DNA of 64,000 bases. Origin: an uncultured Anaerolineaceae bacterium. Lineage in GTDB: Bacteria > Chloroflexota > Limnocylindria > Limnocylindrales > CSP1-4. Below the pieces are notes generated by a model. The model was not told where the DNA came from and did no database searches. It saw nothing but the letters and a program-made list of their open reading frames with translations. How positions within the stretch are numbered: position 1 is the first letter of the stretch; every line of letters begins with the position of its first letter. The position numbers and the translations under genes are program-made. Shown here one piece after another: positions 5,070 to 41,693 of the stretch. The stretch spans positions 8 to 64,007 of the forward strand of contig CAZENL010000003.1 of the NCBI GenBank assembly GCA_964513505.1, given 5' to 3'.

Positions 5070-5603
5070 TCAGGTCTCGATCAGTCGTGCCTCGTGCAGG
5101 GATTCGTAATGGGGCGCGCCGTGCCCCAGGTCGCTGGCGAAGAGCACCACCCGATCACAGGTCCACGTCACGGCCGCCACGGCTCCGGGATCGCGGAGTG
5201 CCCGGACCAGCTGATACGTCGCGCGGCGGGCCACGGTGAGGTGCGGAGCGTGGCCCTTTGCCGGCCACGCCGTGCCGGTCTCCAGGCGTTCGCTGAGTGC
5301 CGTGGCCAGGCCCGCCGTTTCGTCCGCGCCACGGTCCAGGTTGAGCCACGCCACGCCGAGGCCTCCCCTCCCCGGCTGGCCGACCCGGCCACCGCCGGCG
5401 TCGGTGCGGATCTCGAATTGGTGCCGGTGGACGGCAATGTCGTCCAGCGCGGCACGCAGCTCCGGCAGGCGCGCCACCGGCGTCCCTCCCAGGAACAGCA
5501 CCGTCAGGTGGAGCGAATCGGGCGGCAGCCAGCGAACCTGCGGGTGCGGCTGGCGGAGGGGCGCAAGCGCGTCCGCGATTGCCGCAGCGGCGCTCTGCGG
5601 CAC
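5070..5603 (-). CDS. thpR: RNA 2',3'-cyclic phosphodiesterase (2H phosphoesterase, ThpR/LigT family)
   Basis: Two H-x-T-x motifs are present (LHLTVLF and PHLTVAR). The conserved N-terminal strand LRLFIALPVP lies upstream of the first canonical start (GTG at 5603). The true start is therefore probably a CTG at 5627 or 5642. Confidence 0.8.
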   Translation of the reverse strand: MPQSAAAAIADALAPLRQPHPQVRWLPPDSLHLTVLFLGGTPVARLPELRAALDDIAVHRHQFEIRTDAGGGRVGQPGRGGLGVAWLNLDRGADETAGLATALSERLETGTAWPAKGHAPHLTVARRATYQLVRALRDPGAVAAVTWTCDRVVLFASDLGHGAPHYESLHEARLIET

Positions 5604-5653
5604 AGGCAGGGCGATGAAGAGGCGCAGCTCCCCTTCGGCCAGCTCGCGGCTTC

Positions 5654-6415
5654 TCAGCGGACGGCCGCGGTCGCCGGCCGCTCCACGCCGATCAGGTCTA
5701 GCAACCCGAACAGGTCGTGGATCAGGGGGACGCCGTCCGGCGCGCGCCGCTCGCCATCGCCTGCGTGGGAATGGGTGTGCCGGTCGATCAGCACGGGCCT
5801 GATGCCGGCCGTTTGGGCGCCGCGGACATCGGCGCGCACCGAGTCGCCGACGTGGATCGCGGCAGGCGGCGCCACGCGCATCACCTCCAGGGCATGCTCG
5901 AAGATGCCGACGTGGGGTTTCAGGTAGCCCACCCGGGCGCTGACGATCAGGCCGTCGAAGTGGCGCGCCAGTTCCAGGTCGTGGAGCAGCTCCGGTGCCT
6001 GCCAGGACCAGTTGCTGATCACGGCCAGGCGGATGGCGTTGGCGCGCAGCGCATCAAGGGCCGGGATCACGTCCGGGAAGATCCACCAGGACGAGCGTCG
6101 CGCAAAGATCTCCTCGACGCGGCGGAAGAACGTCTCCGGAAGGTCCGGGTAGCCGAGCTTGGCGAAGACCCGTCCGTCCAGCGCGACCAGCCGCCGGTAG
6201 GAAGCCTCCGCGGTCGCTTCGAAGGGTCCCTCGTCCTCGCCCTCGGCGAACACCTCCTCGAAGGCCCGGTGAAAGTCGTCCGGGTCCACCTTCAGGCCGA
6301 ACTCGGGGAAGGCGACGGCGTACACGTCGCCCCAGCTCGGATGGGCGCGCACCAGCGTGTCACCCAGGTCCAGGAAGACGACTTCGGGGCGCGGCAACCG
6401 CGCGTGGCTGGTCAC
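5654..6415 (-). CDS. HAD superfamily hydrolase (subfamily IA-like)
   Basis: The sequence VVFLDLGDTLV...ISNWSW...VGYLKP...HVGDSVRADVRGAQTAG supplies HAD motifs I-IV. The start is the GTG at 6415. Confidence 0.88.
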   Translation of the reverse strand: MTSHARLPRPEVVFLDLGDTLVRAHPSWGDVYAVAFPEFGLKVDPDDFHRAFEEVFAEGEDEGPFEATAEASYRRLVALDGRVFAKLGYPDLPETFFRRVEEIFARRSSWWIFPDVIPALDALRANAIRLAVISNWSWQAPELLHDLELARHFDGLIVSARVGYLKPHVGIFEHALEVMRVAPPAAIHVGDSVRADVRGAQTAGIRPVLIDRHTHSHAGDGERRAPDGVPLIHDLFGLLDLIGVERPATAAVR

Positions 6416-6421
6416 CCGGCC

Positions 6422-6427
6422 AGTCTA
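6422..6427 (-). promoter_or_regulatory. -10 hexamer TAGACT, 6 nt upstream of the HAD GTG (leaderless candidate)
   Basis: The minus strand reads ccCTAGACTggccggGTGACC. Confidence 0.5.
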
Positions 6428-6451
6428 GGGAAGCGGCGCGGTTTGCGACGC

Positions 6452-6480
6452 TTGCAGGCTCCGGTCCCGCGACGTAGCGT
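6452..6480 (+). promoter_or_regulatory. Candidate promoter of the PBP-TelA-vWA-XpaC-AAA+ cluster
   Basis: TTGCAG (6452-6457), a 17-nt spacer and TAGCGT (6475-6480) lie about 120 nt upstream of the TTG start at 6601. The call is by eye only. Confidence 0.3.
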
Positions 6481-6600
6481 GTACCGGAACGTCACCCGCG
6501 CCGGTTCGGTCGCGCGGCCGATCGCACGACCCAATCGACCTTCTGCTCAAAGGACCACCCAATTGCCGGCGATCCCACGCGCCGACCGGCGCGATCCACG

Positions 6601-7725
6601 TTGACCAATCCTGCGCGCCGCTACGCGGCCATCGCCATCGCGATCGTGCTGATCATCGGGGTCAGCGCGGCCATCTTCTCGTCCGTGCGGGACCGGCTGG
6701 CACCATCCACAGTGCCCGTGCAGGGCCTGATCGGGTCTGAGAAGCTGCCCTTCTTCCAGGACGCGCGCGTGATCGCCGCGTTCAAGCGAGGCGGCTACGA
6801 CGTGACGGTCAGGACCTCCGGCTCACGGGCCATCGCCAACGCGGACCTGTCCCAGCAGGACTTCGGCTTCCCGGCCGGGAGCCCGGCTGCGGCGGAGATC
6901 CTCAAACGCAACCCCGGCAGCACCAGCGTGGTCCCGTTCTTCACGCCCATGGCGATCGCCTCGTGGCAGCCGATCGTTGACCTGCTCACGACCGCTGGTG
7001 TGGTCAAGCAGCAGGCCGGCTACCAAACGCTCGACATGGCCGCCTACATGGCCATGGTGGCCAAGGACACGCGCTGGAAGGACCTGCCGAACAACACCAC
7101 GTATTCGGTCAACAAGAGCATCCTCATCACGTCGACGGACGTGCGCAGCTCCAACTCCGCGGCGATGTACCTGTCCATCGCCAGTTACGTGGTCAACGGT
7201 GACAACATCGTCCAGAACGATGCCAACATCGACACCATCGTCCAGCAGACCGCTCCGCTCTTCCTGCGGCAGGGCTTCGTCGAAGCGAGCTCCGAAGAGC
7301 CGTTCGACGACTATCTCGTGCAGGGTATGGGCAAGGCGCCGCTGGTGATGATCTACGAGTCGCAGTTCATCGCGCGGGCAGCTGCCAATGACGGCAGCAT
7401 CACGCCGCAGATGGTGCTGCTCTACCCTGAACCGACGATCTACTCCAAGCACACCTTCGTGGGGCTCACGGCCGCCGGCAAGAGCTTTGGCGATTTCCTC
7501 AACACGGATCCGGAAGTACGCACCCTGGCCACCGACTATGGCTTCCGGACGTCCGACACGGCAGCCTTCCAGACCTTCGTGACCAGCCACCAGCTCAGCG
7601 TTCCGTCGAGCCTGAACGACGTGATCGAGCCGCCCACGTACGAGACGCTCGAGTCGATGATCACCCGCTTCGAAGCCCTCTACAGCGGCTCGCTGCCCTC
7701 CCCGGCTCCAGAAACCAGCCCATAG
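6601..7725 (+). CDS. Signal-anchored periplasmic-binding-protein (PBP) fold protein, orphan (no ABC partner)
   Basis: The start is TTG. The N-terminus, RRYAAIAIAIVLIIGVSAAIF, is a positive patch followed by a TM anchor. The remainder resembles the N-terminal domain of the 9097-10662 product and extracellular solute-binding proteins. Confidence 0.75.
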   Translation: MTNPARRYAAIAIAIVLIIGVSAAIFSSVRDRLAPSTVPVQGLIGSEKLPFFQDARVIAAFKRGGYDVTVRTSGSRAIANADLSQQDFGFPAGSPAAAEILKRNPGSTSVVPFFTPMAIASWQPIVDLLTTAGVVKQQAGYQTLDMAAYMAMVAKDTRWKDLPNNTTYSVNKSILITSTDVRSSNSAAMYLSIASYVVNGDNIVQNDANIDTIVQQTAPLFLRQGFVEASSEEPFDDYLVQGMGKAPLVMIYESQFIARAAANDGSITPQMVLLYPEPTIYSKHTFVGLTAAGKSFGDFLNTDPEVRTLATDYGFRTSDTAAFQTFVTSHQLSVPSSLNDVIEPPTYETLESMITRFEALYSGSLPSPAPETSP

Positions 7726-7760
7726 CCATCGCAGGCCCAAACGACCCAAAGGAGTTCCCG

Positions 7761-9074
7761 ATGACCGAATCGTCCCTGAACCTCGGCGATGGCACCTCGG
7801 CGCAGCCCGGGCAGCAATTGGCCGCCGCGGCGGCGCCGGCCACAACCGACGCGGCGACCCTGGAAGCGGCCACCCAGACGGCCACCCTGACCCTCACACC
7901 GCCGGACGCCGTGACCGCCGTGGCGCCGGACCAGGCCGCAGGCGCGGTCAAGCTTGACCCCGCCGAGACCGCCAAGCTGGACGGCATGGTGACGCGCTAC
8001 CTGGATGCCGTGACCACGCTGGACGTCCACGACGCGGCCTTCCAGGCCAAGGTGGACGACATCCAGAAGCTCGGCGACGCGGACATCAAGGCATCGGCGC
8101 AGGTCTCCAACCGGCTGCTGGACAAGCCGCTGGCGGCCATGTCGCAGGGTGGCGTTGGCGAGGGTTCGTCGATCTCCAAGTCGCTGCTCAACCTGCGCCA
8201 CACGGTCGAGGACCTGGACCCCTCCAGCGAGGGCGACCTGCTTTCCCCGCACAAGATCCTGGGCATCATCCCCTTCGGCGACAAGGTGCGCGACTACTTC
8301 CAGAAATACCAGTCCAGCCAGGCGCACCTCAACGCGATCATCACGTCGCTCTACCAGGGACAGGACGAGCTCCAGAAGGACAACGCGGACATCGAGCAGG
8401 AGAAGGCCAACCTGTGGGCCACCATGGGCCGCCTGCGGCAGTACGTCTACCTGGGCCAGAAGCTGGACGCGGCCCTGACCGCCCGCATCGCCACCATCGG
8501 GGCGACGGACGCGGATCGAGCCAAGGTGCTCAATGACGACCTGCTGTTCCCCGTCCGCCAGAAGGTCCAGGACCTGCTCACCCAGCTGGCCGTGAGCGTC
8601 CAGGGCTACCTGGCGCTTGACCTGATCCGGCGCAACAACGTCGAGTTGATCAAGGGCGTCGACCGCGCCACCACCACCACGGTCTCCGCACTGCGCACGG
8701 CGATCATCGTGGCCCAGGCCCTGGGCGACCAGAAGCTGGTGCTTGACCAGATCACGGCGCTCAACACCACCACCGGCTCGCTGATCGAGTCGACCGGCAA
8801 GATGCTGCGCCAGCAGTCGGCCGACATCAGCAAGCAGGCGTCGTCGGCGACCGTGGACGTGGCCAAGCTCCAGCAGGCGTTCCAGGACATCTACGCCACC
8901 ATGGACGAGATCGACGGCTTCAAGGTCAAGGCGCTGGACAACCTGGAGCAGACGATCACCGCGCTCTCGACCGAGATCGACAAGTCGCAGAGCTACGTGG
9001 ACCGGGCACGCGCCCAGGAACCCGCCACGCCCGGCCAGCCTGCGCTCGGCGACTCGGGCAGCTTCACCGGCTGA
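7761..9074 (+). CDS. telA: TelA / YaaN family toxic-anion-resistance protein
   Basis: An AAGGAG Shine-Dalgarno sequence precedes the ATG. The protein reads as TelA-like over its whole length (e.g. LFPVRQKVQDLLTQLAVSVQGYLALDLIRRNNVELIKGVDRATTTTVSALRTA). The N-terminal ~60 aa are low-complexity. Confidence 0.85.
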   Translation: MTESSLNLGDGTSAQPGQQLAAAAAPATTDAATLEAATQTATLTLTPPDAVTAVAPDQAAGAVKLDPAETAKLDGMVTRYLDAVTTLDVHDAAFQAKVDDIQKLGDADIKASAQVSNRLLDKPLAAMSQGGVGEGSSISKSLLNLRHTVEDLDPSSEGDLLSPHKILGIIPFGDKVRDYFQKYQSSQAHLNAIITSLYQGQDELQKDNADIEQEKANLWATMGRLRQYVYLGQKLDAALTARIATIGATDADRAKVLNDDLLFPVRQKVQDLLTQLAVSVQGYLALDLIRRNNVELIKGVDRATTTTVSALRTAIIVAQALGDQKLVLDQITALNTTTGSLIESTGKMLRQQSADISKQASSATVDVAKLQQAFQDIYATMDEIDGFKVKALDNLEQTITALSTEIDKSQSYVDRARAQEPATPGQPALGDSGSFTG

Positions 9075-9096
9075 CCCTGGGTCCGAGGTCCGATCC

Positions 9097-10662
9097 ATGC
9101 CCCGCCGCCTGACGGCATTCCTGCTGGCGCTGCTTCTGGGCGTCCTCGCGGCCGGCTGCAGCAGCGAGCCGGATAGTTCCAACACGCTCACGGTACTGGC
9201 GGGTTCGGAGCTCCAGGACCTCGCGCCGATGTTGCCGGACATCCAGCAGGCCACCGGCGTCAAGCTCGTGCTCAGCTACATCGGCACGCTCGACGGCGCC
9301 GAGCAGATCGCCAACGGCGATCCCTCCGATGCCGCCTGGTTCAGCCAGGGCAAGTACCTGCAGCTGCTGCCCAACACGGCCAGCCATATCAAGGCCTCGC
9401 AGTCGATCATGCTCAGCCCGGTGGTCATCGGCGTAAAGCAGTCGGTGGCTCGGAGTTTCGGCTGGGAGAACAACCCGAACGTGACCTGGAAGGACATCCA
9501 GGCGAAGTCGGCCGACGGATCGTTCACGTTCGCGATGACCAACCCGGCTGCCTCCAACAGCGGCTTCACCGCGCTGATCGGAGTCGCCTCCGCGCTCTCC
9601 GGCAGCTCGGACGCCATAGACACCGGCACCATCGACACGGCGGCTCTGACGCAGTTCTTCCGCGGACAGACCGTGACGGCCGGCAGCTCCGGCTTCCTGG
9701 CGGACACCTACGTGCGCCAGCAGGATTCGGTCGACGGGATGATCAACTACGAGTCCGTGCTGATGGGGCTCAACAATGCCGGCACCCTGCACGAGCCGCT
9801 CGACCTGATCTACCCCAAGGAAGGCATCGTCACCGCGGACTACCCGCTCATGCTCCTGAACGCGGACAAGCAGGCCGCGTACGACAAGGTCGTGGCCTAC
9901 CTCCGCACGCCGGATGTCCAGAAGCGAATCGAGTCAGACACCCTTCGCAGGCCCGCCGTGCCCGGCGTGGCAGTGGACCCGCGCTTCCCGACCAACCTGA
10001 TCGAGTTGCCCTTCCCGTCCAAGCTGGACACGATCAATGCCCTGCTGACGGTCTACCTGGATCAGATCCGCCAGCCCGCGTCGGCGATCTTCGTGCTGGA
10101 TGTCTCGGGCTCCATGGACGGCGACCGCCTCGATTCGCTCAAGACGGCGCTGAGTGCCCTGACCGGCACGGACACGTCCCTCACCGGCACGTTCGCGCGG
10201 TTCCGTGCGCGTGAGAACGTGACGTTCCTGACCTTCTCGACGGACGTGGATCCGCCGCAGGAGTTCACAATCGACGACACGGATCCGAACTCGGCCGACA
10301 TGCAGGCCATCCGGAGTTACATCGACAACCTGCAGGCAGGCGGTAGCACGGCCATCTACTCCGCGCTCGCCAAGGCCTACGACCTGGTTGGCCAGGCGCA
10401 GGCCGCCGACCCCAACCGGCTCTACTCGGTGGTGCTCATGACCGACGGCGAGAACAACAGCGGCCTCGACGAAGCCACCTGGCAGAGCCAGCTGGCGGCC
10501 CTGCCGGAGGCCGTCCGCAACGTGCACACCTACCCGATCCATTTCGGCGACAGCAGCCCCGAGGCCTTGCAGGCCATCGCGACGGCGACCGGAGGCAAGC
10601 TCTTCGACGCCCAGTCAACATCGCTGCAGACCATCTTCAAGCAGATCCGCGGCTACCAGTGA
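9097..10662 (+). CDS. Lipoprotein with an N-terminal PBP-fold domain and a C-terminal von Willebrand A (vWA) domain
   Basis: The signal peptide has a lipobox (LLLGVLAAGC). MIDAS residues are intact (FVLDVSGSMDG ... VVLMTDGENN). Confidence 0.85.
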   Translation: MPRRLTAFLLALLLGVLAAGCSSEPDSSNTLTVLAGSELQDLAPMLPDIQQATGVKLVLSYIGTLDGAEQIANGDPSDAAWFSQGKYLQLLPNTASHIKASQSIMLSPVVIGVKQSVARSFGWENNPNVTWKDIQAKSADGSFTFAMTNPAASNSGFTALIGVASALSGSSDAIDTGTIDTAALTQFFRGQTVTAGSSGFLADTYVRQQDSVDGMINYESVLMGLNNAGTLHEPLDLIYPKEGIVTADYPLMLLNADKQAAYDKVVAYLRTPDVQKRIESDTLRRPAVPGVAVDPRFPTNLIELPFPSKLDTINALLTVYLDQIRQPASAIFVLDVSGSMDGDRLDSLKTALSALTGTDTSLTGTFARFRARENVTFLTFSTDVDPPQEFTIDDTDPNSADMQAIRSYIDNLQAGGSTAIYSALAKAYDLVGQAQAADPNRLYSVVLMTDGENNSGLDEATWQSQLAALPEAVRNVHTYPIHFGDSSPEALQAIATATGGKLFDAQSTSLQTIFKQIRGYQ

Positions 10663-11444
10663 GCTTGCGCAACCGCCTCGAGACCTTTCTCTATTCGCGA
10701 CGCAACATCGCGGGCAGCCTGCTCGCGCTCGGCGGTCTGGCGCTCTTCTTCACCGGCCTCGTCAGCGGCCCGTTGTGGGCCCCCGTGGTCGTGGGGCTCT
10801 ACGCGATCGGCGTTTTGCTGGTCCCCGCAGAGAAACCGCTGGATCTGAGCATGGACAGCAGTGCCGATGCCGCCGCGGTCCGCGCCGGGCTGGATCGCCT
10901 GCTGGTGAACATCCGAGGGAGCGTTGCGGACGACATCTACGTCCGGGTCGCCAACATCTGCACATCCATCGAGGCCACCCTGGCTGCGGCGCCGACGGAC
11001 CTCGGCACCGCGGATCCCAACGTCTTCCTCATCCGCCAGACCGCACTGGATTACCTGCCCGCTGCCCTCTCCGCCTATCTGGCGCTGCCCCGGAGCTTCG
11101 CGGAGAGCAGCATCGCGGCGGGCGGCCTCACGCCGCACGATGAATTGCGGGACCAGTTGCGGCTCATGTCCGACAAGCTGCAGGAGGTCGCGGACGACAT
11201 CGCGCGCCACGACTCCGACCGGCTCCTTGCCAACGGCCGCTTCCTGGCCGAGAAGTTCGGCACCAGCTCGCTGGACGTGGCTGCGGCGCCGGCCGTCGCG
11301 CTGCCGCCGGCCGACGCAGAGGTCTCGGTGCCCGCGGAGGTGTCCGTGCCTGCCGCAGTGTCCGTGCCAGCCACGGCGGTCGCCGCTCCACCCGTCGCCG
11401 TGGAGCAGCCCGAGGTCGAGCGAGCGCGCGAGCGCACCCACTGA
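10659..11444 (+). CDS. XpaC-like (5-bromo-4-chloroindolyl phosphate hydrolysis protein family) 2-TM helical protein
   Basis: Its GTG start overlaps the upstream stop (GTGA). Two N-terminal TM helices (IAGSLLALGGLALFFTGLV and LWAPVVVGLYAIGVLLV) precede a helical cytoplasmic domain. The family assignment rests on architecture and on the known TelA-XpaC neighbourhood, not on a search. Confidence 0.6.
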   Translation: MSLRNRLETFLYSRRNIAGSLLALGGLALFFTGLVSGPLWAPVVVGLYAIGVLLVPAEKPLDLSMDSSADAAAVRAGLDRLLVNIRGSVADDIYVRVANICTSIEATLAAAPTDLGTADPNVFLIRQTALDYLPAALSAYLALPRSFAESSIAAGGLTPHDELRDQLRLMSDKLQEVADDIARHDSDRLLANGRFLAEKFGTSSLDVAAAPAVALPPADAEVSVPAEVSVPAAVSVPATAVAAPPVAVEQPEVERARERTH

Positions 11445-14251
11445 TGGCGGACACAGATCCGCCTGGTCTGAGCCTGGCCGTCGACTGGCTGCAGCGCAAC
11501 ATCGACGAACTGGCCCAGGTCACCCGGCGCGTCAATGCGCTTCCGGGCGCAACGCCGGGGCCGGCGGCGCCCGGCGTGCTGCCGGCAGTGACGGCCCAGG
11601 CGGGGGCTTCCCCGGATGAGCTCATGGCCGCGCTCGGAGCCGTGCCAGGTGCCGATCCGGCGACGGCTGCGGCGTCCACAGGCCCAGCCGCAATGCCCTC
11701 GGCCGCGCCCGAACCTGCGGCGCCAGCCACGGTGCCCGCGGCGACTCAGCCCGCGGCGACTCAGCCCGCGAGCACCACGCCGCTCCTCGATCAGCTCGGT
11801 CGGGATCTGACCAAGCTGGCCGCAGACGGGATGCTCACGCCCTGCATCGGCCGTGACGCCGAGATGGAGTGGCTGATCGAGGTCCTGTGCCGCACCGAGA
11901 AGCGCAACCCGGTCCTGCTGGGACCCGCGGGCGCCGGCAAGACCTCGATCGTGGAGGGCCTCGCCCAGCGCATCGCGGCGGGCAAGGTACCGGACCTGCT
12001 CAAAGGAACGCGCATCATCGAGATCCCGCTCGGCGGCCTGGTTGCCGGCACGCAGTACCGAGGCCAACTCGAGCAGCGCCTTCAGCAGCTGCTGGCGGAG
12101 GCCTCCCAGCCCGGCATCGTGCTGTTCTTCGACGAGATCCACCTCCTGGCGGGCGTCGGCCAGAGCGAGGGCGGCGTTGGCGCCGCCGAGCTGCTCAAAC
12201 CCGCCCTGGCGCGCGGCGACATCGCGGTCATCGGGGCAACCACGCCGGAGGCCTACCGCGCGTCCATCGAGAAGGACACCGCGCTCGCCCGGCGCTTCAC
12301 CACGATCTCCATCACCGAGCTCACCCGCGACCAGACGCGGCCGATCCTGCAGAACGTCCGCGACACGCTCCAGCGCGTCCGCGGGGTGACCGTCTCCGAC
12401 GACGCCCTGGACGTGCTGCTGGACTTCGCGGACACCTCGATCACCAACCGGCGTTTCCCGGACAAGGCCATCGACCTGCTCCAGCAGGCCGTGGCGCAGG
12501 CGGTCGTCGAAGGGCGGTCCACCGTCGACAAGGCCGATGCCCAGCGCACCACGGAGCTGTGGTCGGACCGCGCGTCGTCGGCGCCGACCCTGGAGCGCTT
12601 CGGCCGGGACCTGATCCGGCTGGCCAAGGCGGGGCAGCTGGGGCCGATCGTGGGCCGCGACAAGGAGATCCAGGCGATCATCGAGATCCTGATCCGCCAC
12701 TCCAAGCGCAACCCGATCCTCCTTGGACCTGCCGGCGCCGGCAAGACGGCCATCGTGGAGGGACTGGCCATCCGGATCGCGTCCGGCAACGTGCCGGCGC
12801 CCCTCCAGGGCGTGCGCCTCTTCGATGTCTCGCTGACGGCCCTTGCCAGCGCCGTGGCCACGGAGCCCTCGGTCATCGAGGACTTCCTGCTGGAGGCGCG
12901 GCACCCGTCCGTGATCCTCTTCCTGGACGAGATCCACGTCATTGCCTCGCCCGACGTGCGCCAGATCGGGGAGGCCCTCAAGCCGGCCCTGGCACGTGGC
13001 GAGATCGCCTGTATCGGTGCCACGACCGGCGAGGAGTACCAGGCCAGCATCGAGCCGGAGACCGCCCTGGCGCGCCGCTTCACGCCGATCGCGGTCGAGC
13101 CCATGGACCCGGCCGGCGTGAGGGCCGTGATGCTGTCCGTGGCCAAGAGCCTGGGCACGCTGCGGAACGTGGATGTCCAGGAGAGCGCGGTGGACCTGCT
13201 CATTGGTCTGGCCGACCGGTTCCTGCCCAATCGGTCGTTCCCGGACAAGGGCGTGGACGTGCTGGAGCAGTCAGTGGCCTACGCGGTCGCCAACGGACGC
13301 AGCGTGGTCGACGAGGCCACGGCCAGGGAAGCCGTGGCGGCCATGGTGGGCATGCCGCTGGACCCCACCGATTCGCTGGCCGCGCTCGCCGCGGAGATTG
13401 CTCGACGTGGACTGCTGGACGCCGCGAGCGCCTCGGCCCTCATCGCCCGCCTCCAGGTCACCATGCGCGGCCTGGACGCCGGCCGGCAGCGACCCGATGC
13501 CGTGGTCCTGTTGTATGGCGGTGCGGCCGGCAACGCCGATGCGCTCGCCGAGGCCGTGGCGCGGACGCTCTTCGGTCGCGGCACGGCCATCGTGGACGTG
13601 GAGCTCTCCGGCATGACCGGCGAGGAGTCCATCTCCTCGTTGCTCGGCTCGGCTCCCGGCCTCGTCGGATCGGACAGGGCGCTGCCCATGCAGGAGCTGC
13701 GCCGGTCGCCATGGCAGGTGCTGCTGCTGCGCGGCATCGACCGCTGTGCGGGCTCGATCAGGGAGACGGTCGCGGCGGCCCTCCAGGCGGGCGCCTTCAC
13801 CGATGCCATGGGCCGGACCATTCCGCTCGGGTCAACGGTCACCGTCCTGACGGCCCCGGCGCTGGATCCGGGAGCGGCCGCGGGCCAGGTGGACACCACG
13901 GCCCTGCTCCGAGCCGCGCTGGGCACCACGCTGGCCGATGCCTGTGACGTGATCACGGGCTCGCTCGCGGGCGTTGCACCGGGCGATCGGGCGACCTGGA
14001 TCCGCAGCCAGCTGCTGGCGCCCTTGGCCGACCGCTTCGAACAGCAGGGCTTCGAGGTCACGATCGATCAGGCACTCGTCGACTGGCTTGACCACCACCT
14101 GCCAACAGACGGCAGTCAGCCGGACGGATTCATCGACCGAACCGTTGCACCAGCCCTGGCAGCCGGGTTGAAACCGGCACACCGCAAGTACCTGGCAACC
14201 GTCACCAACGACGCCCCCACCCTCGTCGAAGCGGGCAAGTCCGCGGGCTGA
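11444..14251 (+). CDS. Atypical Clp/Hsp100-like AAA+ protein (D1 - D1 - degenerate D2)
   Basis: Its ATG overlaps the upstream stop (ATGA). Two complete D1-type modules are present: GRDAEMEW..LLGPAGAGKTSIVEGLA..IVLFFDEIHLL and GRDKEIQA..LLGPAGAGKTAIVEGLA..VILFLDEIHVI. The third, D2-like module has a dead Walker A (YGGAAGNAD) and a dead Walker B (LLLRGIDRC). The N-terminal ~110 aa are Ala/Pro-rich. Confidence 0.88.
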   Translation: MADTDPPGLSLAVDWLQRNIDELAQVTRRVNALPGATPGPAAPGVLPAVTAQAGASPDELMAALGAVPGADPATAAASTGPAAMPSAAPEPAAPATVPAATQPAATQPASTTPLLDQLGRDLTKLAADGMLTPCIGRDAEMEWLIEVLCRTEKRNPVLLGPAGAGKTSIVEGLAQRIAAGKVPDLLKGTRIIEIPLGGLVAGTQYRGQLEQRLQQLLAEASQPGIVLFFDEIHLLAGVGQSEGGVGAAELLKPALARGDIAVIGATTPEAYRASIEKDTALARRFTTISITELTRDQTRPILQNVRDTLQRVRGVTVSDDALDVLLDFADTSITNRRFPDKAIDLLQQAVAQAVVEGRSTVDKADAQRTTELWSDRASSAPTLERFGRDLIRLAKAGQLGPIVGRDKEIQAIIEILIRHSKRNPILLGPAGAGKTAIVEGLAIRIASGNVPAPLQGVRLFDVSLTALASAVATEPSVIEDFLLEARHPSVILFLDEIHVIASPDVRQIGEALKPALARGEIACIGATTGEEYQASIEPETALARRFTPIAVEPMDPAGVRAVMLSVAKSLGTLRNVDVQESAVDLLIGLADRFLPNRSFPDKGVDVLEQSVAYAVANGRSVVDEATAREAVAAMVGMPLDPTDSLAALAAEIARRGLLDAASASALIARLQVTMRGLDAGRQRPDAVVLLYGGAAGNADALAEAVARTLFGRGTAIVDVELSGMTGEESISSLLGSAPGLVGSDRALPMQELRRSPWQVLLLRGIDRCAGSIRETVAAALQAGAFTDAMGRTIPLGSTVTVLTAPALDPGAAAGQVDTTALLRAALGTTLADACDVITGSLAGVAPGDRATWIRSQLLAPLADRFEQQGFEVTIDQALVDWLDHHLPTDGSQPDGFIDRTVAPALAAGLKPAHRKYLATVTNDAPTLVEAGKSAG

Positions 14252-14441
14252 GCCTGCTCGCTATCCCTAGCTCGATGCGGAGTGGCGTGGGGATAACGAA
14301 GCAACGCAGCCGGGTGGCCAACGGGTGGCGGCGGTTGATCGCGTCCCGGCTCCGAAGGCCGTCAAGCCGCGTGAGCGGCAGGCCGAGGAGGCGGGACCGG
14401 CAACCGACGACAGGACCCGCAGGCACGTGACCCGCAGGCAC

Positions 14442-16079
14442 TCAGTCGTTGTAGAGGCGTTCCTCGATCAGCTTCTCCTGCACGGTCCGCCCGTTGGCGT
14501 CGAAGCAGGAGTACTCGAAGTGCTTCTGGAACTCCAGGTCGATCGAGTGCTGGCCGCCGCGGTTCTTCTCCACCGAGACGATGACCCACTCCCGGAAGCG
14601 CTGTGCCTGGTAGGGGTTGAACTCGATGTTGACCTTGGCGACGATGTTGTACTTCTCGTTGAGGATCAGGATGACGTCCGCCTCGTAGTTGATGGCGGAT
14701 GAGCCGCGCAGGTGGTAGTTGCGCAGGCGGGCCGCCTTGAGGCCCTCCTTGTCGGCAGCGACGATCGAGATCATCGGCACGTCCAGGGACAGCGCGATGT
14801 CCTTGAGGCCGTTGACGATGTAGGTGACCTTCTCCGTCTCCGTGTTCGGCTCCGGGATGACCGGCACCTTCTGCATGTAGTCCACGAAGACCACCAGCCG
14901 GCGGTCGCCGGAGAGCTGCTTGTAGCGCGTGATCAGCGAGCGCATGTTCTCGACGGTGCTGGTGGTCTGCGAGCCGCGCAGCAGGTAGAGATTCGGGCCG
15001 TAGCGCGCGATGCGCTCGAGCGCCGGCTTGAGGCGCGGGTTGGCGGACAGGTCGGCCGATTCGCCGCCCTGCGCGAGCCACGTCCCCAGGATCTCGCGGC
15101 GGACGTCCTGCAGCTTCACGCCGCCGGTCTTGGCGGGCAGCTGGGCGAGCACGGATTCCATGGCGATGATGCGGTTGAGGAGGTACTCCTCGTCGTGCTC
15201 GAAGCAGATGTACAGCACGCTGGCCTGTCCACCGAGGACGATGTTGCGGGCCATCTGCACGGCCATGGTGGTCTTGCCGGTGCCCTGCGCGCCGCCGATG
15301 AGCAGCAGCTCTCCAGCACGCAACCCACCGCCGATGGTCTTGTCCAGGGGCGTGAAGCCGAGCGGCACCGGCTGGTACTGGTCCACCGTGCCGGCGCTGA
15401 CCTTGTCCGCCAGCGTGCCGAGGACCTCTGTCGCGGAGCGCGGCTGGACCAGGGCAACCCCCGTGTCCACGGTCCAGGTCCGGTCGTCGGGCGCGGGCGC
15501 GGCAGGCACCGCCTTGGGAGCAGGCGGCATGGGGAAGGGCGGAGCGACGCGAGCCGGATGCTGGGCGAGTTCCGCTGGCTTCAGCTGCGGCGTTGACTCG
15601 CGGGGCACCTGCGGGAAGGCGCGCAGGCCCGCGGCAGCGGGTGCCGCGTCCAGGCGCGCGATCGACGTGGTCGATGGCCAGTCACCGTCGGGTAGCTCAG
15701 CCTCCGCCGCGGCATCGTCCGGGTTGACCTCCGGGCGGGCGGCCCACTGCTCAGTCGTGGCGAAGTCGGACGGCGGTGGCGGCTCGTACGCGGAAACGCC
15801 GTTGCCGGGGACGGGCGACGGTGCGTGCGGCTCCGGATCAACCGCCAGCTGGGCACGCGATCCCGACTCGAAACCGTCTCCATCGTCCTCGAAGGCAAAG
15901 GAGAGCGCGCCCGACGAGACGAACGGATCGTCTCGCTCCATCGGCGTGGCTTCCAGGCGCGGAAGAATGGCCGGTTGCCACGGGCGTGGCGCGTGGTCGA
16001 CATGGGCCGGCGCGGCCGTGCGAACCCCGGCGTCCTCGTCCCGCGTGTCGGGGTGACGGTTGAGTCGGCTGATCTTCAC
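14442..16079 (-). CDS. DnaB-C-terminal-domain (RecA-fold) ATPase with a disordered N-terminus
   Basis: The Walker A is LLIGGAQGTGKTTMAVQMA and the Walker B is LVVFVDYMQKV, followed by a DnaB/KaiC-like C-terminal region. The first ~240 aa are Pro/Ala/Asp-rich and lack the DnaB N-terminal helical domain. The start is either the GTG at 16079 or the ATG at 15941. Confidence 0.8.
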   Translation of the reverse strand: MKISRLNRHPDTRDEDAGVRTAAPAHVDHAPRPWQPAILPRLEATPMERDDPFVSSGALSFAFEDDGDGFESGSRAQLAVDPEPHAPSPVPGNGVSAYEPPPPSDFATTEQWAARPEVNPDDAAAEAELPDGDWPSTTSIARLDAAPAAAGLRAFPQVPRESTPQLKPAELAQHPARVAPPFPMPPAPKAVPAAPAPDDRTWTVDTGVALVQPRSATEVLGTLADKVSAGTVDQYQPVPLGFTPLDKTIGGGLRAGELLLIGGAQGTGKTTMAVQMARNIVLGGQASVLYICFEHDEEYLLNRIIAMESVLAQLPAKTGGVKLQDVRREILGTWLAQGGESADLSANPRLKPALERIARYGPNLYLLRGSQTTSTVENMRSLITRYKQLSGDRRLVVFVDYMQKVPVIPEPNTETEKVTYIVNGLKDIALSLDVPMISIVAADKEGLKAARLRNYHLRGSSAINYEADVILILNEKYNIVAKVNIEFNPYQAQRFREWVIVSVEKNRGGQHSIDLEFQKHFEYSCFDANGRTVQEKLIEERLYND

Positions 16080-16209
16080 GCTACCTCGACGCTGCGGTGC
16101 CCTGCGACTGAGGCGAAGCTACCAGTGGCGGGGCGCGTTCGGCAGCCTTCCGAACCTCCTACCTCCCTACAGCATCGGTACCAACCGGACTTGGCAGGCC
16201 AGGTCCGAA

Positions 16210-17628
16210 TCAGGCCGGCGTCTTGCCCAGGGCGTGCCAGTAATGCGCGATGGCATGCGTGCCGCCGTGGTAGTTGGCGAGCACCATCGATTCGTTGGGG
16301 GCGTGGGCATGGTCGTCCGGATTGGCGAAGCCCAGCAGGACCACGGGCAGCTTCAACATCGAGGCGAACGACGCGGCGGCGGGGATCGAGCCTCCACCGC
16401 GCGTGAACAGGGGCGCCTGTCCAAAGACCTCCTCCAGGACGGAGGCGGCCGCCTGGACCGCTGGATGGTCGACGCTCAACACGCTCCACATGCCCAGGTT
16501 GATCAGCTGCACGTCCACGTTGACGCCACGTGGCGCCAGCTCCAGGACCCGGTCACGGACCCGTTCGAACGTCCGCTGCGGGTCCATGTCAGCCACCAGC
16601 CGCGTGCTGATCTTGGCGTGTGCGTGCGCGGGGATGATGGTCTTGCTGCCCTCGCCCTCGAACCCGCCCCACAGCCCGTTGATGTCCAAGGTCGGCCGGG
16701 CACCGGTGCGTTCCAGCACGGTGTACTCCGGCTCGCCGAACAGCTCCGGCACGCCGGCGGACTGGCGGAATGCCTCGTCCTCCAGCGGCAGGCGCGCGAA
16801 CTCGGCCCGATCACGCTCCGTGAGCGGACGCACCTCGTCGTAGAAACCGGGCACGTCCACGCTGCCGGTCGGGGTCTTGAGGCCTGCCAGGATCGTGGCC
16901 AGCGCCTGCGCCGGGTTCTGGACATTGCCGCCGAAGCCGCCCGAATGCAGGTCGACCGGCGGACCGGTCACGTCGATCTGGGCGTACATCAGGCCGCGCA
17001 GCCCGATGCAGATCGCGGGCAGGTTGCCCTCGAAGAAGCCCGTGTCGCTGACGACCGCGAGATCGGCGCCGAGGCGATGCCGGTTGGCCTCCAGCCAGGC
17101 GTCGAAGTTGGTCGAGCCGGACTCCTCCTCGCCCTCGAAGACGTAGCGGACGTTCACGGGCAGGCGGCCCGCCGTCTTCAGCCACGCTCGCGCGGCCCAG
17201 AGGTGGAGATGCGCCTGGCCCTTGTCGTCGGCGGCGCCCCGGGCGTAGATGCGCCCGTCCTCGATGCGCGGCTCGAACGGCGGCCGCACCCACAGGTCCA
17301 GCGGGTCCACCGGCTGCACGTCGTAATGGCAGTAGACCAGGACGGTCGGCGCACCCTCTGCGTGGAGCCAGTCGGCGTAGAAGATCGGGTGGCCCGGGGT
17401 CGGCGAGATCTCGACGTTCTCGAGGCCGCTGGCGCGCGCGTGCTCGGCCATGAACTCGGCCGCCCGCAGCATGTCCTGCTGGCGCTCGCGCAGCGTCGAG
17501 ATGCTGGGGATCTCCAGGAAGGCCCGGTAGTCGTCCAGGCGCTCCTGCTGCGTCTGGTCGATCCAGGCGTCAACCGCCGCCAGCGTGCCGTCGTCCGCCG
17601 TTGTCTTGGCCAAACCTGTGCCTCCCAT
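16210..17628 (-). CDS. M20 family dipeptidase / metallohydrolase
   Basis: The sequence contains VYCHYDVQPVDP and ARGAADDKGQ, and its overall layout matches the ArgE/DapE/CPG2 family. Confidence 0.88.
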   Translation of the reverse strand: MGGTGLAKTTADDGTLAAVDAWIDQTQQERLDDYRAFLEIPSISTLRERQQDMLRAAEFMAEHARASGLENVEISPTPGHPIFYADWLHAEGAPTVLVYCHYDVQPVDPLDLWVRPPFEPRIEDGRIYARGAADDKGQAHLHLWAARAWLKTAGRLPVNVRYVFEGEEESGSTNFDAWLEANRHRLGADLAVVSDTGFFEGNLPAICIGLRGLMYAQIDVTGPPVDLHSGGFGGNVQNPAQALATILAGLKTPTGSVDVPGFYDEVRPLTERDRAEFARLPLEDEAFRQSAGVPELFGEPEYTVLERTGARPTLDINGLWGGFEGEGSKTIIPAHAHAKISTRLVADMDPQRTFERVRDRVLELAPRGVNVDVQLINLGMWSVLSVDHPAVQAAASVLEEVFGQAPLFTRGGGSIPAAASFASMLKLPVVLLGFANPDDHAHAPNESMVLANYHGGTHAIAHYWHALGKTPA

Positions 17629-37261: not shown

Positions 37262-37663
37262 CTATCGACGCAGGGTCAGGCTCAGCTCCACCAGGCCGGC
37301 CATGACGATCACGAACCCGGCGATCGGAAGGCTGAACGCGTCCAGGGCGCGAAGGACCACCAGCAGCGCCACGACCAGGGCACACAGGAGCGCCCGACGC
37401 CCTGCACGCAGCCAGTCTCCCTGGTGGGCGATCCGACGCCGCTGCGCGAAGCCGACCAGCCAGAACACGGGCCACAGCGTCGCGCCGACGGCGACCCCGA
37501 GCAGGATGGCACCCGCCATCTGGACGCTGGAATCGCCGACGGGCGACTGTGTGGTGAAGAGCCACGCCACGCCCGTCCACGCCGCAACGGCCGCGACGAT
37601 GAGGATCAGGTTGGCGACTCGGTCCCTGGCGTACACCGGGTCCGAGTCTACGGCCCCAGTCAT
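37262..37663 (-). CDS. Small 4-TM membrane protein of unknown function
   Basis: This is trimmed to the ATG at 37663, which overlaps the helicase-nuclease stop (ATGA). It has four hydrophobic segments. Confidence 0.62.
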   Translation of the reverse strand: MTGAVDSDPVYARDRVANLILIVAAVAAWTGVAWLFTTQSPVGDSSVQMAGAILLGVAVGATLWPVFWLVGFAQRRRIAHQGDWLRAGRRALLCALVVALLVVLRALDAFSLPIAGFVIVMAGLVELSLTLRR

Positions 37664-40600
37664 GCGGCGCTCTGCGGACAGATCTCCCGGTACGGGCAGA
37701 AGCCGCACGTCATGTAGTCCGGGCTTGCCGCGAAGTTGCCGGCACGGATGCCGTCCGCTGCCGTTTCCAGCGTCTTGCGGGCCTTCTCCAGACGCGCCGG
37801 GTCCGGCACGATCCGTCCAACGACGCCGCTCTCGAGGAAGCGCAGCTGCACGGCCGCCGGGAGGGCACCGGTCTCTGCCTCGTGGGCCAGTGCGTAGATC
37901 TGCAGCTGCAGCGAGTCCTTCGCCCGTTGGGTCGCCACCTTCTGGTCGCGAACGTCGCTGGACTTGTAGTCCGTGATGACGCTGCCTTCCGGCGTCTCGT
38001 CGACGCGGTCGTAGCGGCCGCGCACCAGGTCCCGTCCGAAGTGGACCGCGAAAGGCCGCTCCACGGCGATCGGGATCGACGCGTCCGGCCGCGCCTCGTC
38101 CATGAGGAAGTGCCGCAAGGCCCCCTGCCCGGCCGCGAACCGCGCGTCCTCATGGGCGCGTGACAGGAATCCCTCGCTGGACCAGTGCGTGGCAAACACG
38201 TCCAGCAGCTGTGCCTCCGTCATGGAGCGTCCGCGGATACGGGCCGTGTGGAATGCGGCAACCGCCTGGTGGAGCGCGTTTCCGAGGATGAGCGCGTGGT
38301 GGGGTGGCGTGGGAATGCGGACGATGTGACGCAGCCGGTACTTGAGCGGACAGGACAGGTAGTCGTCCACCTGTGAGTAGCTCAATGACAGGCTCGTCGG
38401 CTCTCCCGGAGCGACCTTGACGGGTGGCGGAGAGGGCTGCGCGGCCGCCGGCTGGCGGTTGCCGTCCAGCGCGGCAATCAGCTCGGCAAGCCCTCCTGCA
38501 GCCGCCGGCAGGATGGCCGGCTCCGGCTGGTCCAGGGCCTCCTGGATGAAGGGTGAGACGCGCCGGCGCCGCCCCGAAGCCGTCTCGTGCGAAGAGCTCA
38601 GGACCAGTTCATCCCGAGCCCGTGTCATGGCCACGTAGCAGAGCCTCCGCTCCTCCGCCCAGGCCACCTCCTCGATGTCCGAACGCAGTCGCAGCGCCTC
38701 CGGCATCGAAAGGCGGTGACGCCGGTCCCGCGAGGGAAAGCGGCCTTCCGTGAGGCCGGCGAGGAAGACCACAGGGAACTCAAGACCCTTGGCCTTGTGG
38801 ACGGTCAGCACCGAGACCGCCTCCTCGTCGGCCGGAGAGTCATCCGCGTGATCCGCCCCGGACTCCACGAGGACCTGAAGGTGCGGCACCAGGAACGGCA
38901 CGCGGTCCTCCGCCAGCAACGCGCCGTGCGCACGGACCACCTCGAAGAATCGCGCCACGTTGCGGAGAGCGGCATCGTCACCGCTCTCGGCGGATGCGAT
39001 GAGTGCCCCAAGCCGGCCGCTCCGCTTGAGCTGGCGGTACAGCACCTCCCAGGTGGGCATCTGGTGCGACGCCTCCACGGCGTCCCGAACGTCCGAGACG
39101 AGCCGTTCCAGGCCCTGCCGAGACCGGGATTGCAGGCGCAGCAGACCCGGTTGTTCCACCAGCTCCGTGGCGACCTCCCAGAAAGAGCGGTGGCGCCGCC
39201 GCGCAGTTTCCAGCAGTGCCGTCAGGTCCTGCCCGCCCAACCCGTACGGCTCTCCCGTGGCGACCGCGTAGAGATCCATCGAGCTGGTCGGATCCGCGAC
39301 GGTGCGCAGAAATGCCAACAGGTCCCGCACGTCTCGCCGCGCGTACAGGCCACTCGCGCCGCTGAAACGCCACGGGATGCCGCGCACGTCCAGGCTGCGC
39401 AGGAATCGGCGCGCGTCCCCGTTGGTGCGCACCAGGATGGCGATGTCCGACGGTGAGGCGCCTGCCTGGATGCGCTCGGCAACGGACGCTGCCACGCCGT
39501 CCGCTTCCGCCTCCTCGTTGCGATAGGCCACGTGCCGCACCGGCGCGGGCCGCTTGCCGCGACGCGTGGAGATGGGCTCCTTCTCCACGCCATCGTGCCC
39601 CTGCACGCGATGCGGCTCGTTGTGCCGGATCAGCCGTTGCGCCGCGGCCAGGATGGGCGTCCGCGAGCGGTAGTTGCGCCGCAGCACGATTCGGCGCAAT
39701 GCCGGGTAGACCCGTGCAAGGCCGAGCATGTTCTCCACGGCCGCGCCCCGGAACGCGTAGATCGCCTGGTCGTCATCCCCGACCACCATCACGTTGCCAC
39801 GTGCCCCGGCCACGGCGCGAACGAGTGCCAGCTGGACAGCGTTGGTGTCCTGGAACTCGTCCACCACGACGTAGCGGAAGCGATCCTGGATCTCCGCCCG
39901 GACCGCCGCCCGCTCCTCCAGGAGACGGACTGCCAGCGCCACCTGGTCCGCGAAGTCGATCAGGTTCCGCTCCGCCAGCAGCTCTTCATACCGGGAGAAC
40001 GCATGGGCGACCTCCCGGTGTCCGGCCGCTTCCTCGATGAGAGCCTCACAGGCCGAGGCCTGGGCAGAATCCGTGGCGCCCTCCAGGGCCGCACGCGAGC
40101 CCGCCTCGAGTTCCTGGGCAAAGGCCAGGTACTCCAGAGGCGAGATCTGTTCGTCCTTCGCCCGGCTGATCAGCTCCACGAGAGCGTCCAGGAAACGCGT
40201 CGGGTCCGCCAACGGCCGGTAGCGCTCCAGCCCGAGTTCGAAGAGGTGCTCCCGCAGGAGCACCTGGGACTCGGCGCGCCCGATGACGCGCGGTTCCGCG
40301 TTGCGGCCCAGCTCGAGCCCGAATTCCCGCAGGAGCCGGTCACCGAACGCGTGGAACGTGTGGATGGCAGCGTCCGCGCGGCCGTACGGCACGAGCACGT
40401 CCACGCGAGCCTGCATCTCCGCGGCGGCTGCGTCCGTGAACGTCAGGGCCAGGATCTCCGACGGCCGTGCCCGCTTGGTGGCGATGAGCCACGCCACGCG
40501 GCGGGTGATGACCTCTGTCTTGCCGGTGCCCGGTCCCGCGACCACGAGCAACGGCCCCTCCCCGTGCGTGACGGCCTGGCGCTGCTCGCGGTTGAGGCCG

Positions 40601-40701: not shown

Positions 40702-40723
40702 GACGCGAGCCTCGGACCGTGCC

Positions 40724-40742
40724 GTGACAGCTAGCCTGTCAC
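40724..40742 (-). other. Intercistronic stem-loop (7-bp stem, 5-nt loop)
   Basis: GTGACAG-ctagc-CTGTCAC lies 5 nt after the TelA-paralog stop and 22 nt before the helicase ATG. No U-tract follows it. Confidence 0.4.
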
Positions 40743-40747
40743 ACGCC

Positions 40748-41683: not shown

Positions 41684-41693
41684 GTCCGTCGCG

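Follow-up and report, generated by a model that had tools for sequence, protein, structure and literature searches.

What does a TelA protein do when its gene lies in a tight row with two exported binding proteins, a small membrane protein and a Clp-like ATPase? The question is raised by a locus in a 64,000-nt stretch of DNA (hereafter, the window) from an uncultured Anaerolineaceae bacterium that GTDB places in the Limnocylindrales of the Chloroflexota (contig CAZENL010000003.1 of assembly GCA_964513505.1). Five genes there, which we call g1 to g5, encode an anchored protein with a divergent domain like that of a periplasmic binding protein (PBP), TelA (g2), a lipoprotein that combines a PBP domain with a vWA domain, a small transmembrane (TM) protein, and an atypical AAA+ ATPase of the Clp/Hsp100 type. 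TelA has been tied for decades to tellurite, nisin and daptomycin resistance, yet we know of no mechanism for it. We propose that the five genes form one operon encoding an envelope-spanning stress module built around TelA, in which a sensor would be coupled to the TelA effector and the AAA+ protein would serve as its reset or trigger. We put the probability of this reading at about 0.5. The role of the module is probably to sense and repair envelope damage.

Organization of the cluster

The five same-strand open reading frames (ORFs) lie where the initial annotation had placed them (Table 1), and they are closely packed, as it described. A 35-nt gap separates g1 from telA, with GGAG placed 7 nt ahead of the telA ATG; a 22-nt gap separates telA from g3; and g3 and g4 share 4 nt in a GTGA overlap. 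The last junction, g4/g5, had been read as ATGA but is TGATG, i.e., a 1-nt overlap. Downstream, a convergent gene closes the unit, as proposed, and a scan found no terminator after g5. Upstream, the 185-nt intergenic region does contain the hexamer pair that had been pointed out, TTGCAG (6452-6457) and TAGCGT (6475-6480) with 17 nt between them, but a promoter scan of 5500-16500 returned no qualifying site, and the pair is no better than chance because the −10 hexamer matches the consensus at only 3/6 positions. A search of the leader for a riboswitch gave no Rfam match. The leader sequence at 6470-6605 folds as a long hairpin (−56.3 kcal/mol; z = −2.29 relative to shuffled sequences).

The layered topology suggested for the five products is supported by a hydropathy scan. 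There is one N-terminal segment in g1, a signal peptide in g3, and a TM hairpin in g4, while TelA and g5 have no hydrophobic segment.

Conservation of the cluster

The same gene order recurs well beyond the window. A scan anchored on g4, with one genome per species, yielded 34 loci, mostly from metagenome-assembled genomes (MAGs) of Chloroflexota/Limnocylindrales, but also from two Gammaproteobacteria, one cyanobacterium and one member of the Trueperaceae. By tblastn, ~22 of the 34 loci have the order g1-TelA-g3-g4; TelA and g4 occur without the other core genes in loci L018, L023, L025 and L032. The four-gene order is seen in a member of the Competibacteraceae, another Gammaproteobacterium and a Synechococcaceae cyanobacterium, and, apart from Chloroflexota, it reaches the Beta- and Gammaproteobacteria, one cyanobacterium and one actinomycete. 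Among cultured organisms, the four-gene core is carried by Sphaerotilus sulfidivorans, Variovorax sp. SRS16 and Nonomuraea gerenzanensis. In the first two, RefSeq names the outer genes (g1 and g4) only as hypothetical, telA as a toxic anion resistance protein, and g3 as a vWA or “substrate-binding and VWA” domain-containing protein. The Variovorax TelA is only 27% identical to that of the window, and the gene order is still kept. On another metagenome contig, all four core genes are present with overlapping stops and starts. Dozens of loci, spread over several phyla, share this order, which is more than chance would give.

The AAA+ gene has a narrower distribution. Its family comprises at least 120 clusters at 90% identity, and every named member is from a Limnocylindria-type MAG. 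At loci that lack it, the operon stops at g4 and is followed by a convergent or unrelated gene (a histidine kinase, GH15 glycosidase, anthranilate synthase, aldehyde dehydrogenase or pyruvate kinase gene); no replacement ATPase was found after g4 in these loci. A reciprocal scan of metagenomes, anchored on a motif specific to the degenerate third module of the AAA+ protein, gave 36 loci, 22 of them with informative flanks. TelA-cluster genes adjoin the AAA+ gene in 20 of the 22, and the arrangement is convergent in five of these 20 (L064, L070, L075, L077 and L079). Further convergent arrangements are found at L014 and at L038, where a 48%-identical AAA+ ortholog faces a TelA-g4-PBP/vWA group. 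L041 has the full five genes, followed by a PPK2 gene.

Both scans bear out the expectation that the genes are co-conserved in related genomes, but not as a five-gene unit. The minimal conserved pair is the predicted cytoplasmic TelA plus g4, to which two exported, apparently paralogous PBP proteins are usually added, giving the four-gene module. The four-gene core is, as judged from its distribution, ancient, and the AAA+ protein, with a predicted D1 - D1′ - dead D2 architecture, is a lineage-specific addition, clearly tied to the module and gained in Limnocylindria-type Chloroflexota.

Two kinds of departure from the standard cluster were observed. In one variant (L038:3028-7668; also L064, L070, L077 and L079), the PBP+vWA gene is followed by g4 and telA on one strand, with the AAA+ gene convergent. 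The variant PBP+vWA protein is longer, at 648 aa, and very divergent, with 25% identity to g3, and no g1 was found in the variant loci with upstream sequence available (L038, L070 and L079); L064 and L077 end within telA. The other departure is a broken, frame-shifted cluster in loci from long-read MAGs (L028, on CAWGBA010000011.1, as well as L012, L015, L020 and L022). L028 is syntenic with the window, and its breaks reach the flanking DnaB-like and peptidase genes. The breaks of this type are probably assembly indel errors rather than pseudogenes.

Architecture of the AAA+ protein

The description of g5 as a triple-module Clp-like AAA+ protein is confirmed. Pfam matches comprise AAA in two stretches, AAA_lid_9 in two stretches, and AAA_2, and the ClpV, ClpB and ClpA models each match in three stretches, all under their cut-offs. 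The best NCBIfam match is TssH/ClpV (E 9e-146), with scores relative to cut-offs of 487/885 for TssH, 480/1232 for ClpB, 446/993 for ClpA and 441/1900 for ClpG. Among PDB structures, g5 matches the D1 module of ClpC/ClpB strongly (E 1e-83) and D2 weakly. The match to bpMoxR is sub-threshold (25.3 bits vs a cut-off of 27).

Motifs compared across 30 family members distinguish the three modules. The N-terminal helix keeps the motif GLDLAxxWLQRNLDEL. Module 1 keeps Walker A, Walker B and the pore loop AGTQYRGQLEER, and it is the only module with a pore-loop tyrosine. In module 3, a variable GGAAGNAD stands where Walker A would be, and LRGIDRC where Walker B would be. Neither Clp_N nor D2-small was detected in g5 or in 120 relatives, and no M domain was found in g5. 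By these motifs, g5 is a predicted new layout for a Clp/Hsp100 protein: a duplicated D1 followed by a pseudo-ATPase D2.

Could g5 nonetheless be a general quality-control chaperone, a ClpB or ClpC paralog that lies beside an unrelated TelA cluster? The strong similarity to ClpC/ClpB D1 would fit, as would the name “ClpC” that JGI gives to its relatives and the existence of two loci, L076 and L080, that carry the AAA+ gene without the TelA cluster. However, g5 scores under every Clp equivalog cut-off, lacks Clp_N, M and D2-small, and belongs to a family in which Walker A and Walker B are gone from D2 throughout. The adjacency to TelA-cluster genes persists through gene-order rearrangements at 48-65% identity, and the partner protein, g4, bears a tail that co-varies with the AAA+ gene (see below). 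We consider the chaperone explanation very improbable, in keeping with the initial view that g5 is not an ordinary ClpB/ClpC ortholog.

The g4 tail and its co-occurrence with the AAA+ gene

When g4 is adjacent to the AAA+ gene, its product has an acidic, low-complexity tail of ~40-50 residues that ends in ERERVH/R; g4 of the window ends in RERTH. An ERERVH-type terminus is present at 10/17 AAA+-linked loci vs 0/11 loci that have space for the AAA+ gene but lack it (Fisher p = 0.0016, for a motif defined post hoc). Of the 14 g4 genes that lie immediately upstream of the AAA+ gene in the AAA+-anchored set, 11 encode this ending. Such a tail, disordered and with a conserved end, would suit recognition by an unfoldase or by its docking domain. 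We infer from it a physical association of g4 and the AAA+ protein, for which it is the best evidence presented here.

A Limnocylindria subclade (L015, L017, L019 and L071) has two or three g4 paralogs flanking the AAA+ gene. Their C-termini read [KR]I[VL] or EKVRVV (e.g., L017:7442-8119, 8138-8812 and 11494-12330).

The g4 family and the question of XpaC

The g4 protein has no match in Pfam, NCBIfam or PADLOC. Its AlphaFold2 (AF2) model (predicted local distance difference test score, pLDDT, of 74.7) has helices at residues 3-54, 67-85, 91-110, 120-141, 159-182 and 186-200 and shows a helical TM hairpin. Comparison with solved structures, by phmmer against PDB and by Foldseek with the AF2 model, gave nothing under E 0.2. 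An exhaustive HMMER search of 1.84 billion representatives recovered 1312 clusters at 50% identity (E<1e-3), and g4 founds what is, on sequence criteria, a large family without a Pfam model. The cytoplasmic domain of g4 is fused to PspC in 7 of 37 sampled distant representatives; in these proteins of ~350 aa, the g4 domain is joined C-terminally to the PspC domain. Single fusions to LiaF-TM and to vWA were also seen (the fusion representatives are P0158, P0159, P0162, P0174, P0187, P0199, P0242 and P0248), and in a Trueperaceae MAG (L034:9914-11823) the PspC fusion lies beside a small vWA gene of 211 aa.

The initial annotation called g4 “XpaC-like”, a description of which part stands. Its architecture is of the XpaC type, N-terminal TM segments followed by a helical domain in the cytoplasm, and the protein adjoins TelA in nearly all loci. 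The homology is another matter. PF10112, the XpaC family, matched 0/23 close g4 relatives at E up to 10 and 0/37 distant relatives at E up to 0.01; an XpaC sequence used as a positive control, 69% identical to B. subtilis XpaC, matched at 214 bits. An hhalign comparison of g4 with this sequence gave a probability of 0.7%, and a comparison of 41 g4 relatives with 18 genuine XpaC sequences gave 3.7% (pairwise E 0.012), with both alignments of low diversity. The latter comparison aligned 60 colinear columns around the g4 motif YLPxxLxxYLxLP. We make no claim that g4 is an XpaC homolog.

In one Bacillus genome (L037:3764-5785), telA is followed by a gene for a DUF3974 membrane protein in place of XpaC. 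This protein aligns weakly to the g4/XpaC motif region (E 3e-5 with eight sequences searched). That the g4 family, XpaC and DUF3974 form a superfamily of TelA anchors is a lead.

The TelA proteins

The identity of TelA is as first annotated: g2 is a full-length PF05816 protein (E 7.8e-89; 298.5 bits vs a cut-off of 30; profile positions 3-331 of 332), preceded by ~90 Ala/Thr/Pro-rich residues outside the Pfam match. TelA has no relative in PDB by sequence or by profile. A single-sequence AF2 model consisted entirely of long helices with a pLDDT of 45.9 and was not used.

Another, divergent TelA paralog is encoded elsewhere in the window (E 7e-22 for PF05816 and 2e-36 for the TelA profile). Directly upstream of it is a flotillin gene with Band_7 and Flot domains, and an ORF for a UvrD/PD-(D/E)XK helicase-nuclease follows on the same strand. 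A flotillin gene is also found near the Variovorax four-gene cluster (L044). Flotillin in both settings is consistent with a membrane-organisation role.

The exported ligand-binding proteins

What had been claimed for g3, a lipobox protein with PBP and vWA domains, held up. Its Pfam matches are SBP_bac_11 (E 7e-17; 62.3 bits vs a cut-off of 25) and VWA (E 6e-15). The lipobox cysteine, Cys21, is kept in every ortholog row whose aligned part covers the N-terminus. The metal ion-dependent adhesion site (MIDAS) is intact, with D335, S337, S339, T418 and D450 invariant among 17 orthologs, as are F514-K515 and I517-Q521 of the C-terminal motif FKxIRGYQ, in which residue 516 varies.

g1, an orphan without a match in Pfam, NCBIfam or PDB, has orthologs of 42-70% identity in 16 loci. 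A profile of 17 g1 orthologs aligns with the PBP domain of g3 over 247 columns (hhalign probability 78.5%, E 1.7e-5), and the two have the loop motifs GSE, SNS, QG/GSSG, YES and YP in common. We read g1 as a divergent, membrane-anchored putative paralog of the g3 PBP domain.

What these proteins bind bears on a different explanation, in which the module serves the sensing, scavenging or homeostasis of phosphate or another oxyanion: the PBPs would capture an oxyanion or phosphoester, the MIDAS would hold a counter-metal, and TelA and g4 would couple the response. The PBP domain of g3 belongs to SBP_bac_11, and its nearest solved relatives are the molybdate-binding ModA proteins, although the resemblance is weak (g3 profile vs ModA structures in PDB, E 3e-4 to 5e-3); TelA, by name, is a determinant of resistance to a toxic anion, tellurite. 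Several neighbourhoods, in unrelated lineages, also have a phosphate theme. In Sphaerotilus (L035:2819-12568), a PhoX gene is only 5 nt upstream of g1, with a gene for an ExeM/NucH nuclease downstream; in the Competibacteraceae locus (L027:3190-4482), a GDPD gene is upstream; at L041:10751-11569, the PPK2 gene overlaps the AAA+ stop codon; and phosphoesterase genes lie a few kb off on a further four-gene metagenome contig. Such neighbours are, however, a minority, and there are none in the window. No permease or ABC ATPase gene was found in or beside the module in the loci examined, no match to PstS-type models was obtained, and the idea gives the Clp-like unfoldase no role. We regard oxyanion handling as a distinctly unlikely explanation.

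A model for the function of the module

How, then, might an envelope-spanning TelA module work? We propose that, on the outer side of the membrane, g1 and g3 would bind a small anionic ligand, a metal-dependent partner or both and would report to a g4/TelA complex via membrane-embedded segments, through TM contacts. TelA would protect or reorganise the membrane at its inner face, as TelA/XpaC pairs may do in Firmicutes (nisin, daptomycin, tellurite). The AAA+ protein would dock on, or thread, the ERERVH-ended tail of g4, and its action would release, recycle or disassemble the g4-TelA assembly, by analogy to ClpV and the sheath of the type VI secretion system (T6SS), or to Vps4 and ESCRT-III.

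Studies of TelA in Bacillota provide the background to this proposal. Listeria telA mutants have higher sensitivity to both nisin and tellurite, and induction of the xpaC-telA pair accompanies the Psp/Lia response (PMC12791056). In E. faecium, deletion of xpaC lowers the daptomycin minimum inhibitory concentration 8-fold and redistributes anionic lipid domains, but only with intact telA (PMC6811118). This dependence on telA suggests that the anchor restrains TelA. Aravind and colleagues place TelA among the components that form sub-membrane structures (PMC7824862).

Several points weigh against the envelope-stress module as we propose it. The AAA+ genes at L076 and L080 lack an adjacent TelA cluster. 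The tail motif was settled on once the data had been inspected; [KR]I[VL] takes the place of ERERVH in one AAA+-linked subclade, and g4 of L041 shows neither ending. The membrane-remodelling role of TelA draws on the literature and on family context, because the fold model reached a pLDDT of only 45.9. Any signal must cross the membrane by TM-TM contacts because the outer loop of g4 has only ~2 residues. Lastly, the initial annotation could not name a system with this gene set, and we likewise found none in PADLOC, NCBIfam or the searchable literature; a 2012 survey of Ter/TelA systems, which lay outside the search, may list TelA-vWA neighbourhoods. A 2026 preprint in which “TelA” and “vWA” occur together was set aside, since its TelA is an LXG toxin that shares the name but is unrelated.

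The initial annotation had left open a role in conflict, and such a role can be spelled out with the same parts. In an anti-phage or other conflict system, of the abortive-infection or entry-exclusion type, the external PBP and vWA proteins would serve to detect invaders. TelA would then be a membrane-active and potentially toxic effector restrained by g4, and the AAA+ protein would remove g4 to fire it. The dependence of the xpaC phenotype on telA fits a restrained effector (PMC6811118), and TelA is in the Ter gene set, which comparative genomics has linked to phage and xenobiotic exclusion (PMC7824862). Two copies are plasmid-borne, that of Sphaerotilus on a plasmid of 303 kb and that of Variovorax on a megaplasmid, where a Wadjet system lies ~2.4 kb from it, and L038 is flanked by PIN-domain and SWIM-domain genes. 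On the other hand, g1-g4 have no matches in PADLOC-DB 2.0, and g5 has only weak, generic P-loop matches, the best being to IetA (E 5e-10 over ~80 residues). No relatives of g4 were found in IMG/VR viral contigs. Flanking genes in Limnocylindria are of the housekeeping kind (HAD hydrolase, M20 peptidase, aldehyde dehydrogenase and pyruvate kinase), with conserved synteny at L028, and orthologs in genome-anchored Chloroflexota loci are ~44-78% identical (mostly 60-78%), without the hypervariability of an invader sensor. No finding points specifically to conflict or defence, or so far speaks for conflict rather than for envelope or oxyanion stress, and we think a defence function improbable.

The envelope-stress module could also be taken further than we are prepared to argue for. 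As an AAA+-driven membrane-maintenance machine of a class not recognised before, it would have exported PBP/vWA sensors that gate a sub-membrane TelA assembly held by g4, and a specialised unfoldase that pulls on the ERERVH tail so as to fire or recycle the assembly, with g4, XpaC and DUF3974 all members of one superfamily. We hold this version to be unlikely. If true, it would give bacteria an analogue of Vps4/ESCRT-III or ClpV/sheath recycling and would provide a mechanism for the TelA family, and the g4 family, XpaC and the DUF3974 neighbours in Bacillus would be one ancient superfamily of TelA anchors.

The locus offers a testable parts list for TelA: an anchor, an effector, sensors and a reset motor. 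The usual partner of TelA outside Firmicutes appears to be a large family without a Pfam model, and the TelA+g4 pair is commonly wired, by gene order, to two exported proteins predicted to bind ligands. One lineage has added a dedicated putative unfoldase, with which the presumed docking tail co-varies. The four-gene core is present in cultured hosts, where it could be deleted.

Features of the locus and neighbouring genes

The coordinates of the features are collected in Table 1. Between 4.5 and 17.6 kb, the window encodes MarR, LigT-like and HAD proteins, the five cluster genes, the DnaB_C-like ATPase of the convergent gene, and an M20 peptidase. The first ~230 residues of the convergent gene product are Pro/Ala/Asp-rich without a domain match, and are followed by a DnaB_C/KaiC/RecA-like ATPase core. 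The protein scores far under the DnaB equivalog cut-offs and has a weak PADLOC match to mad8 (E 2e-7). The gene is syntenic in L028 and identical in L049.

Table 1. Features of the TelA locus and of the second telA region, in window coordinates
Feature	Residues (aa)	Position (nt)	Strand	Description
Upstream region		6416-6600	+	Intergenic region and 5′ leader, 185 nt; holds the weak hexamer pair
g1		6601-7725	+	374 aa; N-terminal signal/anchor and divergent extracytoplasmic PBP-like domain
g1 hydrophobic segment	4-31	6610-6693	+	N-terminal; hydropathy
g2 (telA)		7761-9074	+	Cytoplasmic; toxic anion resistance family
TelA domain	93-414	8037-9002	+	PF05816
g3		9097-10662	+	Lipoprotein; type II PBP domain and vWA domain
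g3 signal peptide	to LAAG-C21	9097-9159	+	Lipobox
g3 PBP domain	31-280	9187-9936	+	Type II; SBP_bac_11
g3 vWA domain	331-516	10087-10644	+	VWA; intact MIDAS
g4		10659-11444	+	TM hairpin, cytoplasmic helical bundle and disordered tail
g4 TM hairpin	16-58	10704-10832	+	Hydropathy
g4 helical bundle	67-200	10857-11258	+	Cytoplasmic; AF2 model
g4 tail	201-261	11259-11441	+	Disordered, ends in RERTH; AF2 model
g5		11444-14251	+	Atypical Clp/Hsp100-type AAA+
g5 N-terminal helix	8-30	11465-11533	+	Conserved, then Pro/Ala linker; motif conservation
g5 module 1	103-362	11750-12529	+	D1 predicted active by motif; Walker A/B and pore-loop Tyr
g5 module 2	378-640	12575-13363	+	Second D1; Walker A/B, no aromatic pore loop
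g5 module 3	643-806	13370-13861	+	Degenerate D2; no Walker A or B
Convergent gene		14442-16079	-	DnaB_C/KaiC-like, 545 aa; closes the unit
Helicase-nuclease ORF		37660-40899	-	UvrD/PD-(D/E)XK
Second telA		40748-41923	-	Divergent paralog
Flotillin gene		41694-43235	-	Band_7 and Flot

Comparison with known systems

Among Clp/Hsp100 proteins, g5 resembles ClpV/TssH, ClpB and ClpC in having a D1-type AAA module with the pore-loop motif YRG, AAA_lid_9 and a D2-type AAA_2, and like ClpV it is encoded together with its presumed substrate. Unlike class 1 members, it has a duplicated D1 and a predicted dead D2, it lacks Clp_N, the M-domain coiled coil and D2-small, and a short N-terminal helix with a Pro/Ala linker replaces the N domain.

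A second point of comparison is provided by the MoxR-vWA pairs and ternary conflict systems reportedly described by Kaur et al. in 2020. As in MoxR-vWA pairs, a vWA protein with an intact MIDAS is encoded beside an AAA+ ATPase and variable sensor domains. The differences are that g5 is of the Clp type and that the AAA+ gene is absent from most of the range of the module. The usual direct pairing of vWA and AAA+ proteins is impossible here because the vWA domain is extracytoplasmic and the AAA+ protein cytoplasmic.

The Psp/Lia systems (PspA-PspBC and LiaH-LiaI) have a cytoplasmic helical effector that is recruited to the membrane by a small anchor, an arrangement that TelA and g4 may share, and the cytoplasmic domain of g4 is fused to PspC and LiaF-TM in other genomes. 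There is, however, no PspA/ESCRT-III-family protein here, TelA being of another family, and the Psp/Lia systems are without external PBP/vWA components.

The Ter systems with TerY(TerF)-vWA proteins also associate TelA with a vWA-domain protein in a membrane-linked stress module and are proposed to form a sub-membrane structure that responds to xenobiotics or phage (PMC7824862). In contrast to Ter systems, there is no TerB, TerC or TerD gene in or beside the cluster (among the genes at 4.5-17.6 kb) and no kinase/phosphatase pair, and the vWA domain here is part of an exported lipoprotein fused to a PBP, whereas TerY/TerF are cytoplasmic.

A further comparison is with the xpaC-telA (yaaN) pair of Bacillota, represented by xpaC-yaaN of B. 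subtilis, lmo1966-lmo1967 of L. monocytogenes and xpaC-telA of E. faecium. That pair has an envelope role, with nisin, tellurite and daptomycin phenotypes and with xpaC acting only with intact telA (PMC12791056, PMC6811118). In both cases, a PF05816 protein lies beside a small protein in which N-terminal TM segments precede a cytoplasmic helical domain of ~150 aa, the two genes are co-transcribed (here, in a predicted operon), and a version with only TelA and its partner exists, i.e., TelA plus g4. Unlike the Bacillota pair, g4 is not a detectable XpaC homolog and follows telA, in the reverse order; the pair is surrounded by two exported PBP proteins, one of them fused to vWA; and in this lineage there is a dedicated AAA+ protein. 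The locus is a pair of TelA and a membrane anchor, extended by exported PBP/vWA proteins as its predicted sensors and, in one lineage, by a new Clp layout.

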